From: a plasmid
DNA: 64,000 nt
Direction: 5' to 3' (one strand)
Assembly: GCF_053078305.1 (NCBI RefSeq)
Contig: NZ_CP166875.1
In this document: in pieces, positions 21,001-24,000 of the stretch
How the letters are laid out: every line of letters begins with the position of its first letter
Numbering within the stretch: the first letter of the stretch is position 1
Made by a program: the position numbers

Positions 21001-24000
21001 CAGCCGTGTTCAGGGCGCGATTCTGGTACATACCTGACTGTAATCATCCCTACGAACTACTCTTTGCACCAGAAACGCGCAGGAGTGTTTTAGCGTGTCT
21101 CCGGCGTGATGTCGAGTTGTGCGGTAATGAGTGAGCGAAAAAAATCCCCTGGATTACAGGGGGAACCCATGATCAGACTTTGAAGTTTATTTGTTATTTG
21201 ATGGAATGAGCACGAATCCCGGAGATGACGTTCAGGTGGCAGGAAACGCGCTCAGACGCTTTCTAACGCACTTTTTTGCATTGGGCAATGGTTTTGTATG
21301 TTTTGGTGGGTTCAGGCCGTCAGAGACGTTTTGAGCGCGTTTCTGGCGCTTGCTGCTACTGCCAAACCATCCCCATGGCCAGTTGATGCCAGAAACGCGC
21401 AGGAATTTTGTAGCGCGTCTCCGGTCCCTGATCAATGAATTCCCTGTCATTAACATGCGTTTACCCGGAAACGCGCCCTGATGTTCTATCGTATCGCGGG
21501 AACGGTGTCGAGGGTGTCGGGGCAAAGCCCTGACCAGGTGGTAATCGTATAGCCGTGCGTGCGCGGTTATACGATTACACATCCTGTCCCGGAATCAGGA
21601 TTGTTTTTCGCGCACAACTGCGGCAAATTCACCCCGTTGCGATTGCAACAATGGAAATATCAAAACTACGAGAATTAATTAGCCATTTGCTACCCCTTGG
21701 CCTGGCCTCCACCAGTCACGGGGGATTTTTTCGCCTGTTCTGATTGTCTTTTGCTGATGGTTACGGCAGATTGGAAAAGAGCGCATTTGTGGTGCTCTCT
21801 CCAAAATAATATTTCTCATTACTCAAACTCTGATGGCTTCCCCCTGTAATCCAGGGGGATTTTTTAATTTATCGCTATGCTTCGTAATTCATTCAGAATA
21901 CAGACAGTATGGTTAATCAGTTTTTCATCATTTTTTCGGTGTTTGCCCTATCCTGCATCAGAACGCTAAAAACAGGAATCTCTTTATGACGAATCCTCCA
22001 TTTCAGGATTTTTTATGTGGCGTCTACTACATGCGATCCGTTTTGGTGAACCGTTAGTTATATATTGGTTATATGTTAGTTATATCTTAGTTATACTTTT
22101 GCTGCGCGTCAGTTACAGAGGCGTTTTGAGGGTAAATTCTGGAGGCACGTGACCGACTGTATACAAAATGCTGGCGCATTTTGATACGTCGACGTGCCAA
22201 AGGGGACGCCCCTTTGAAACCCCGTCAGAATTAAAACCGGCCTGTCTTTTTACAATATTCAGCTCTGGCTATACACCAACTTATATTTTCTCCTTTGGCA
22301 TAATGAAGCGCATCATTCCATTTTTTCCATGCTCCAATGTAATCACCTTCACGCTCCAGTCTGACAGCTTCGTTTGCGGGTGAAAAATATTTATTTTCTA
22401 AATAAATTGCTTTGTCCTGATTCATACTCGTATTTGTATTTTTATTGGATTTAGAAAGAGCGAGCCTGTCGGGTTAATACATATTGGCATGACTGTTGAT
22501 ATATCAGCCCAACTGCACGCTCGTAATCGTTTTAACGTGATTTTCGCAACATGGCAATCCGGGTTCATCTGTCCGGTAATCAATAAAAACCGTGCGAAAA
22601 ACGGGACAGGATGTGGCCATTAATGCTAATGTATGCATACATTAGTATTAATGGCCCTGACAAATACCAGGCATCCGGTCTCAGGATGCCTTGATTCTTG
22701 CCTGGTAGATGCGCTTTACCCGTTCAATTTCTGCCAGCGTTGCGGACCAGTGTAGTTCGGCGGCATGACGATATCTGGCAGCCATTTTTTCCACCATCTC
22801 CGGATTGCTGTCCGCGCTGCGGTGCTGACGCCCCTTCTCCCCAAAAACTTCAACAACCAGCCACTGGCTTCCTGTTCTGCCGAACAATGCCTTGCACAAA
22901 CGTCTCACAGTCAGCGGGGTTAAATCTGGATCGGGATCGTAGGCAGTGGTAGCAAAAATAAAGCGCAGCATTTCTGATGTCTTGTAACGCTTTACGGCAG
23001 CTGCCAGACGTGCGGCGCGTTGGGGTGCTTCCCAGCGGTCGTCACTGTAATTAGCAACTTCAGCCAGATAATCCTTTTCAAGGTTTTCAGCCGTGTAACA
23101 CCTGCCGCCTAAAAAAAACCGCATGGCCTCCCTGGTTTTGTCTCTCACATATCATCCCTCATTAATGCTAATGTATGCATACATTAGCATTAATATCTGA
23201 CAGCAACAAGCGGCGAAGACTACCCCTAATCAAGTACATTTCTTGCATTGTACTATTTCATGCCCTACAATGTAGTAACGTACCTATATACATCAAAAGG
23301 CAACAGCATGAAGATTACAACCCTATCCAGTCGGGAACTTAATCAAGATGTAACTCGAGCCAAACGCGCCACGAATTATGGTCCAGTATTTATTACTGAT
23401 CGGGGTAAAACCGCACATGTACTTCTTAGTATCGAAGAATACCGAAAATTGACGCAACAACGACGAACTCTCATTGACATTCTGGCGATGCCCGATGCTG
23501 ATGCAGTTGAATTTGAACCGCCTCGTATTACGGTTAGTTTAAAACCTGCGGAGTTTTTATAGTGTATATTCTTGATACTAATGTTATCTCTGAGCTACGG
23601 AAGGCTCGGACAGGACGTATAGATAATAATGTTGCAAAATGGGCATTGCATACAGATGCGGCAGATTTCTTTATTTCTGTTATTTCCATAATGGAACTTG
23701 AACAGGGAATATTACAAGTTGAACGTCGAGATATGCGACAAGGGATTATGCTACGTTCTTGGATGGATCAGCATGTGTTACCAGCGTTTTCTGATAAGAT
23801 ACTTCCTGTAGATACTGCGGTTGCATTACGTTGTTCTCGTTTACATGTTCCCGACAGGCGCAGTGAACGAGACGCATTGATCGCAGCAACGGCGCTGGTA
23901 CATGGGATGACGGTTGTAACCAGAAATGTTGGTGATTTTGAATTAACCGGAGTATCAATTATTAATCCCTGGGCTTGATATCGCTTCCCTTCTTCTAGGG

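Follow-up and report, generated by a model that had tools for sequence, protein, structure and literature searches.

Members of the ANR family are small proteins of less than 10 kDa, with a published range of 4.36–9.54 kDa (PMC4983702, PMC10148876), and their genes accompany AraC/XylS activators, as does aar, which is activated by AggR (PMC4983702, PMC6392122). Aar, the archetype of the family, is encoded on pAA of enteroaggregative Escherichia coli (EAEC) strain 042, binds the linker domain of AggR and blocks its dimerization and DNA binding; its cross-reactivity extends to Rns, ToxT and the GadX/GadW regulon, and ANRs are active across species boundaries (PMC4983702). Binding of Aar to H-NS changes how H-NS binds DNA (PMC5570504), and Rnr of enteropathogenic E. 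coli (EPEC) and Citrobacter rodentium, an ANR of Clade-2, binds both H-NS and Ler (PMC10148876). The present study concerns a stretch of 64,000 nucleotides from a plasmid (RefSeq assembly GCF_053078305.1, contig NZ_CP166875.1), hereafter the window, in which a minus-strand open reading frame (ORF) of 64 codons had been singled out in an earlier note made from the sequence alone. We found that this ORF is very probably a genuine ANR-family gene, which lies without an AraC partner in cis in a cassette of small mobilisable plasmids, one of which has been integrated into a large virulence plasmid of Shiga toxin-producing E. coli (STEC).

Family membership, fold and selection of the 64-aa protein

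The ORF was recovered at the position given in the earlier note with exactly the translation quoted there, and the proposal of an ANR-type small regulator was upheld by the score against NCBIfam NF033650, the signature residues, the three-helix prediction and purifying selection. The protein scored 54.4 bits (E = 8.3e-15) against NF033650 (ANR family; ANR_neg_reg), for which the curated cutoff is 32, and the match spanned residues 13–60 of the protein and positions 2–50 of the 54 in the model. The homology check against small regulator families that had been recommended returned homologues: an exhaustive phmmer search gave 24 representatives, half of which are TPR-like repeat proteins and not ANRs, and a word-indexed protein search gave near-identical E. 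coli proteins only. RefSeq protein WP_001367294.1, named 'ANR family transcriptional regulator', differs from the window protein solely at residue 49, where it has G instead of S, and RefSeq gives orthologues on E. coli plasmids the ANR family name. The identity of the ORF is already captured by this annotation, and the guess made from the sequence alone was correct.

In an alignment of 15 sequences, comprising the window protein, Aar, an ANR of enterotoxigenic E. coli (ETEC), an ANR encoded next to an AraC-type gene (AraC-adjacent) and 11 diverged phmmer representatives, A20, E24, A32, W36, A39, N47, W50, C51 and C58 were invariant and R54 was kept in at least 90% of the sequences, while Y57 was not invariant. 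By-eye mapping placed the published ANR signature of A10, E14, A22, W26, A29, W43, R47 and an aromatic-Cys pair (PMC4983702) on A20, E24, A32, W36, A39, W50, R54 and Y57-C58 of the window protein, and this mapping suggests that its helix 2–3 loop is about three residues shorter than in the ANR consensus. The equivalents of A14, E18, A26 and W45 of Aar, mutation of which abolishes activity (PMC4983702), are likewise kept. The window protein and Aar share the hidden Markov model family, the signature, the three helices and a plasmid-borne gene, and they are similar in length (64 and 63 aa), mass (7.56 and 7.23 kDa) and isoelectric point (8.6 and 8.5), the low mass being that of the family. Identity to Aar was 30% overall, and BLASTP aligned the two proteins over 48 aa at 35% identity (E = 5e-8). 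Rnr is only about 25% identical to Aar and is nevertheless interchangeable with it via H-NS/Ler binding (PMC10148876); low identity therefore does not preclude a shared mechanism. The window protein differs from Rnr in mass, falling inside the Clade-1 range of 7.23–7.79 kDa and not in the Clade-2 range of 8.5–9.0 kDa (PMC10148876).

AlphaFold2, run on the family alignment, predicted three helices (residues 3–25, 29–40 and 46–62) with a mean predicted local distance difference test score of 87.3 and a predicted template modelling score of 0.71, in agreement, as a prediction, with the three-helix architecture of the family, and the conserved ANR residues fall on a single face of each helix. Foldseek detected a weak resemblance to MIT/TPR structures (best E = 0.23; TMq 0.67–0.80). 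Membership of an MIT/TPR module was considered and rejected, the sub-threshold Pfam MIT match and the weak Foldseek hits representing a resemblance in shape only. With E values of 1e-9 to 1e-4, phmmer also drew single repeats of long multi-repeat TPR-like proteins. It is conceivable that the ANR fold represents one free-standing unit of the TPR/MIT type, in keeping with a role in binding other proteins.

The region of 19–27 kb is overlapped by 87 ORFs of 30 aa or longer, so that the length of the 64-aa ORF alone is not significant; ORFs of this size being common by chance, it is homology and selection, rather than the open frame, that argue for a gene. The ratio of non-synonymous to synonymous substitution rates (dN/dS) was 0.37 for the comparison with L008, an E. 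coli allele of 75% identity, and 0.18 for that with the homologue (58% identity) of a different small plasmid, L009, and reading frame, length and signature residues are all kept in both, so that purifying selection on the window gene is evident from sequence comparison. The claim that no other plausible coding candidate exists in about 2.6 kb held, in that the DNA between 20051 (end of the Tle1-like gene) and 22681 (edge of the 155-aa ORF) otherwise consists of pseudogene fragments and of non-coding plasmid backbone, made up of hairpin repeats and oriT copies. The description of the ORF as isolated was right in one sense only: it is the sole intact gene of this gene-poor stretch, but it forms part of a cassette that recurs in conserved form on numerous small plasmids.

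The L008 allele, on a contig of 775 nt from GCA_053511385.1 and compared with window positions 22215–22604, is a mosaic. Its upstream 180 nt and the last approximately 50 nt of the gene are 96–100% identical to the window, and codons ~9–50 are 70–83% identical, with both synonymous and non-synonymous changes, which suggests either recombination between diverged alleles or localized diversification of helices 1–2. The 180 nt upstream of the gene are 100% identical between the two, as against 70–83% in the coding centre, and may reflect either recombination or a strong constraint on the oriT and control region.

The oriT cassette on small plasmids and in the window

The window belongs to a large virulence plasmid of STEC that bears ehxCABD, type IV pilus genes, a gene for a YadA-like adhesin and a pseudoknot of the repZ type, and its first 30 kb are 99.1–99.6% identical to p_STEC435_1 and related plasmids. 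Positions 17225–22615 match small (5.9–13 kb) ColE1-like E. coli plasmids, which identifies this segment as an integrated small plasmid. The small plasmids themselves carry two intact copies of the origin of transfer (oriT), which converge from either side of the ANR gene (L002, 6100–6240 and 7330–7470). Each complete copy consists of a bom-like box, an inverted repeat and CACATCCTG|TCCCG; in oriT A of the window, these are a ColE1-bom-like GGGTGTCGGGGC box, an 18-bp inverted repeat (21541–21578) and the nick motif CACATCCTGTCCCG (21578–21591). Three exact matches to this motif occur against 0.35 expected. Alignment with the complete copies of L002, L004 and L007 showed that oriT B is present in the window without its inverted-repeat half, being cut immediately 5' of CAC and just 5' of CACATCCTG. 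The homology to small plasmids stops at 22615, inside oriT B, which marks the right-hand junction of the integrated plasmid. A relaxase-mediated integration exactly at nic, considered because the homology stops at 22615, is not supported: the break is displaced by 9 nt to the 5' side of the presumed nick, and at the other end the junction (17225) falls within ColE1 ori sequence.

The oriT element matches, at 77–85% identity, the intergenic DNA directly upstream of nikA-nikB in approximately 1,900 conjugative IncI1/IncK/IncZ plasmids, and it also matches approximately 1,000 small mobilisable plasmids. In IncI plasmids, nikAB lies on the inverted-repeat side, and the ANR gene is therefore nick-distal to both oriT copies. 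The idea that the ANR gene occupies the position of nikA beside an R64 oriT was rejected, as annotated IncI/K loci place nikAB on the opposite, inverted-repeat side. Relaxase-less Col plasmids with an IncI-type oriT are mobilised by IncI1 plasmids (PMC8623487). The Col plasmids of the NTP16/pCERC7/pU302S type from E. coli and Salmonella, which rely on the NikB relaxase of a helper (PMC8623487), share with the ANR carriers their small size, the IncI-type oriT and the lack of a relaxase. Plasmids of the NTP16 type, however, carry nikA, whereas the ANR plasmids have no annotated nikA and bear two convergent oriTs with the ANR gene between them.

The cassette of oriT, repeats and ANR gene is 90–97% conserved on both ColE1/RNAI replicons (L002, L007) and Rep-protein replicons (L004, L005, L006), and was found on E. 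coli plasmids of 3.3–13 kb with differing replicons. Plasmid L005 (3.5 kb) has no annotated coding sequence apart from the ANR gene, although it contains a recognizable rep-like ORF. The ANR protein occurs at 90% identity or more in 32 PLSDB records, all from E. coli, and these are mostly plasmids of 3.3–13 kb together with a handful of large STEC plasmids; the full locus was present in 27 of 5,426 complete E. coli genomes (~0.5%). No description of an ANR gene on a small or Col plasmid came up in a search of the literature.

Partner search and possible modes of action

Searches with phmmer and with a profile built from AggR, the AraC-adjacent regulator and a Rob-like helix-turn-helix protein against six-frame ORFs detected no AraC/XylS homologue in the 64-kb window or in six small carrier plasmids (best E = 0.16). 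The annotation of the closest complete large plasmid shows no AraC/XylS gene over its first ~114.6 kb, and none lies closer than 6 kb to P0011, P0014 or P0010, the nearest clade members. Every E. coli encodes AraC-family proteins, so that asking for a partner somewhere in the genome is trivial and uninformative. With no activator gene in cis and no AggR/Rns-type site, the gene is therefore an orphan ANR gene, whose product would have to act in trans.

We propose, with moderate confidence, that the gene encodes a functional ANR acting in trans on host regulators without activator-driven feedback. By analogy with Aar, Cnr and Rnr, the 7.6-kDa three-helix protein would bind no DNA itself, and would instead bind other regulators and damp or re-tune their regulons. 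The target classes known for such proteins are the AraC/XylS activators, through their linker or dimerization region, and the H-NS/StpA/Ler family; for an orphan ANR, the targets may lie elsewhere in the host, such as chromosomal AraC proteins of the GadX/GadW type or H-NS. Expression would probably be driven by a weak or constitutive promoter and not by a classical negative-feedback loop. The gene is cargo of a relaxase-less small-plasmid cassette that may be mobilised by IncI helpers and is fused here into a large STEC virulence plasmid.

Several results weigh against this proposal. The Pfam scan of the protein gave no family hit, the MIT match being sub-threshold (14.1 bits against a cutoff of 30), a sequence search of the PDB gave nothing meaningful and thus no solved ANR structure for checking the fold, and identity to characterized members is just 30–35%. 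Ecologically, the family is defined by genes that are paired with a cognate AraC regulator and switched on by it; nothing of the kind is seen in cis here, though such activation is a property of the characterized members and not a formal definition of the family. A sigma-70 promoter scan gave no call on the strand of the ANR gene; a candidate picked by eye comprises TTGCCA (22557–22552), a 17-nt spacer and TAAAAC (22534–22529). The AggR-promoter rule, which demands WWWWWWWTATC with at most two mismatches and a −10 element 21–23 bp downstream (PMC6392122), covers sites of the AggR/Rns class only, and both positive controls, aar and the AraC-adjacent ANR gene (L012), passed it. Upstream of the window gene the rule failed, the sole TATC having three mismatches and an 18-bp spacing. 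The ribosome-binding site is weak, as the earlier note had pointed out, with merely GAG abutting the ATG (Shine–Dalgarno:anti-Shine–Dalgarno energy of −2.5 kcal/mol). Finally, the case made for this protein and its clade is computational throughout.

The aar and aggR genes share one plasmid, some 5 kb apart, and aar has qualifying AggR sites and a strong Shine–Dalgarno sequence, whereas no AraC gene accompanies the window gene in cis; the window gene also lacks an AggR-type site, has a weak Shine–Dalgarno sequence and resides in an oriT cassette of small plasmids. The Shine–Dalgarno energies of two other annotated ANR genes were similarly weak (−0.9 and −2.7 kcal/mol), and the initiation region of the window gene is 77% A+T and unstructured. 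The Cnr-type ANR of ETEC (WP_071595697.1, pETEC_73) and the AraC-adjacent ANR (WP_125134166.1, pWP8-S18-ESBL-07_1) share with the window ANR the signature, carriage on E. coli virulence plasmids and equally weak Shine–Dalgarno sequences. They differ from it in sequence (33–35% identity) and in lying next to or near AraC-type virulence regulators and pilus or fimbrial operons, and WP_125134166.1 has two perfect W7-TATC sites upstream, which the window gene lacks.

The possibility that the ORF is spurious, open by chance within conserved but non-coding DNA of the plasmid and mis-annotated through homology transfer, would accord with the similar-sized ORFs common in the region and with the missing Pfam hit, but is effectively excluded by an NCBIfam score well over the curated cutoff, signature residues that are invariant in 15 sequences down to 30% identity, a confident three-helix model and substitutions biased towards synonymous changes, as in coding DNA. 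An intact gene may still be a silent passenger, effectively unexpressed or without a target in its host and kept only through the conserved oriT and backbone cassette. The weak Shine–Dalgarno sequence, the lack of both a predicted promoter and a cis partner, the flanking non-coding DNA conserved as much as or more than the gene, and the decay of the window module, with its truncated ColE1 ori, truncated oriT B and remnants of a Rep gene and an ORF, all agree with such a state. We nevertheless regard it as rather improbable, given that dN/dS is far below 1 even at 42% protein divergence, that every functional signature residue is kept, that no frameshifted copies occur among the full-length hits and that the gene is retained over several replicon backgrounds.

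A different role, as an establishment factor of small mobilisable plasmids, is also conceivable but unlikely: ANR made early, from the first DNA to enter the recipient, would favour the incoming plasmid or its IncI helper by neutralizing H-NS-type xenogeneic silencing or by reprogramming host regulators. The gene lies between two convergent R64-type oriTs and is nick-distal to both, and the (+) strand nicked at oriT A is its template strand, at ~640 nt from the nick. Such an orientation relative to the nicked strand is typical of early-expressed leading-region genes. The conservation of the cassette across replicons, with the ANR gene as the lone annotated coding sequence of a 3.5-kb plasmid, and the occurrence of the 58%-identical homologue on L009, a small MobA/Replicase plasmid on which it is flanked by the same hairpin repeats, point in the same direction, as do the binding of H-NS by ANRs (PMC5570504) and the mobilization of relaxase-less Col plasmids by IncI1 helpers (PMC8623487). 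On the other hand, this argument is based on position alone, no single-strand promoter was identified and either oriT copy may be the one in use; every gene on such small plasmids is near an oriT, and the next-closest homologues (P0011, P0014 and P0010) have no obvious oriT context. It is likewise conceivable but unlikely that the clade as a whole is no virulence-feedback device but cargo or backbone of relaxase-less small plasmids mobilised by IncI helpers, bracketed by two convergent oriTs so as always to enter a recipient with the first DNA; the protein would then be an early anti-silencing or host-reprogramming factor that aids establishment, for instance by neutralizing H-NS or AraC-type regulators of the host. 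If this were true, the concept of leading-region anti-defence genes would extend to a regulator antagonist.

For the gene itself, little changes, as the database annotation is confirmed; the added value lies in the context of an uncharacterized, partner-less ANR on tiny mobilisable plasmids that are able to fuse into STEC virulence plasmids. The ANRs studied so far have been described beside a cognate AraC-family virulence activator that turns them on, and the window clade has none in cis. If the protein is active in trans on host regulators, as we favour, gain of a 3-kb plasmid could re-tune H-NS- or AraC-controlled programmes of a pathogen, among them acid resistance, adhesion and regulation of the locus of enterocyte effacement type, and the gene would modulate virulence in trans while going unnoticed in present-day plasmid typing.

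Features of the integrated module and its neighbourhood

Table 1. Positions of the ANR gene, the oriT copies and associated elements in the window
Feature	Position	Strand	Remarks
ANR-family coding sequence	22231–22425	−	64 codons + TAA stop; 7.56 kDa (7562 Da), pI 8.6
ANR 5' control region	22426–22601	−	AT-rich, weak Shine–Dalgarno sequence
Stem-loop CAAAGGGG-CGT-CCCCTTTG	22198–22216	−	15 nt past the ANR stop; read from sequence
oriT copy A, complete, IncI1 (R64)-type	21500–21610	+	Faces the ANR gene ~640 nt away
oriT copy B, nick motif CACATCCTGTCCCG	22602–22615	−	~180 nt upstream of the ANR start
ColE1-like small-plasmid module, ~5.4 kb	17225–22615		Matches 6.7-kb and 7.5-kb plasmids over exactly that span
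Remnant of rolling-circle-type Rep C-terminus	20670–20882	+	C-terminal 76 aa, 55% identical to L004 Rep, E = 4e-17
ORF remnant	21867–21947	−	Last 27 aa of a 75-aa ORF intact on L004/L005
Imperfect hairpin units, ~30–36 nt	20125–21500		CCAGAAACGCGC-N12-GCGTGTCTCCGG and variants

The stem-loop downstream of the ANR gene has no U-run, and the terminator scan made no call there; with low confidence, it could be a terminator-like element or a structure at the mRNA end. The integrated module is ordered as truncated ColE1 ori/RNAII, RNAI, DUF2931 gene, Tle1-like gene, repeat zone, oriT A, ANR gene and truncated oriT B. Its left edge at 17225 lies inside the ColE1 ori/RNAII sequence (TCTCATAGCTCACGCTG...), while RNAI (17466–17571) is intact. 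The integrated ColE1 replicon (17225–17622) is, judging from these sequences, probably defunct, consistent with a stable cointegrate. Nothing in the window was seen to match the segment that encodes Rop on the small plasmids. The Rep and ORF remnants indicate an origin of the cassette on a Rep-type small plasmid, from which it later joined a ColE1 replicon.

The hairpin core GAAACGCGC/GCGCGTTTC has seven copies in the 64 kb, all of them within the repeat zone. Hairpin units of the same types flank the ANR homologue on the unrelated 4.7-kb plasmid L009 (483–515, 586–603, 640–665, 1210–1240 and 1330–1360). One guess is that these units serve as single-strand initiation or lagging-strand origin signals.

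A 563-aa protein with a Tle1-like phospholipase-effector domain of the type VI secretion system (T6SS; 18360–20051, minus strand) and the DUF2931 protein are also encoded on the small ColE1-type plasmid NZ_CP075646.1 (6.7 kb), and sister plasmids have colicin K, immunity and lysis genes at the place of the Tle1-like and DUF2931 genes. This arrangement suggests that the Tle1-like toxin/immunity pair may be plasmid-borne, bacteriocin-like cargo without a T6SS.

Beyond the module, a 34-nt near-perfect palindrome, ATTAATGCTAATGTATGCATACATTAG(C/T)ATTAAT, is present in three copies (22619–22652, 23161–23194 and 38606–38639) against 0 expected, two of which bracket a hypothetical 155-aa ORF (22681–23148, minus strand) without a Pfam or NCBIfam hit; the palindrome could be an operator or the boundary of a mobile cassette. 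Just past this ORF, a Phd/YefM-type antitoxin and a PIN-domain VapC toxin are encoded (23308–23978, plus strand), forming an ordinary plasmid addiction module. Furthermore, the Rfam PK-repZ pseudoknot (41944–42094, minus strand; 166.7 bits) marks a replication control region of the IncI/B/O/K/Z type, whereas p_STEC435_1, the closest relative over 1–30 kb, has an IncFII repA instead; the large plasmids are thus mosaics.

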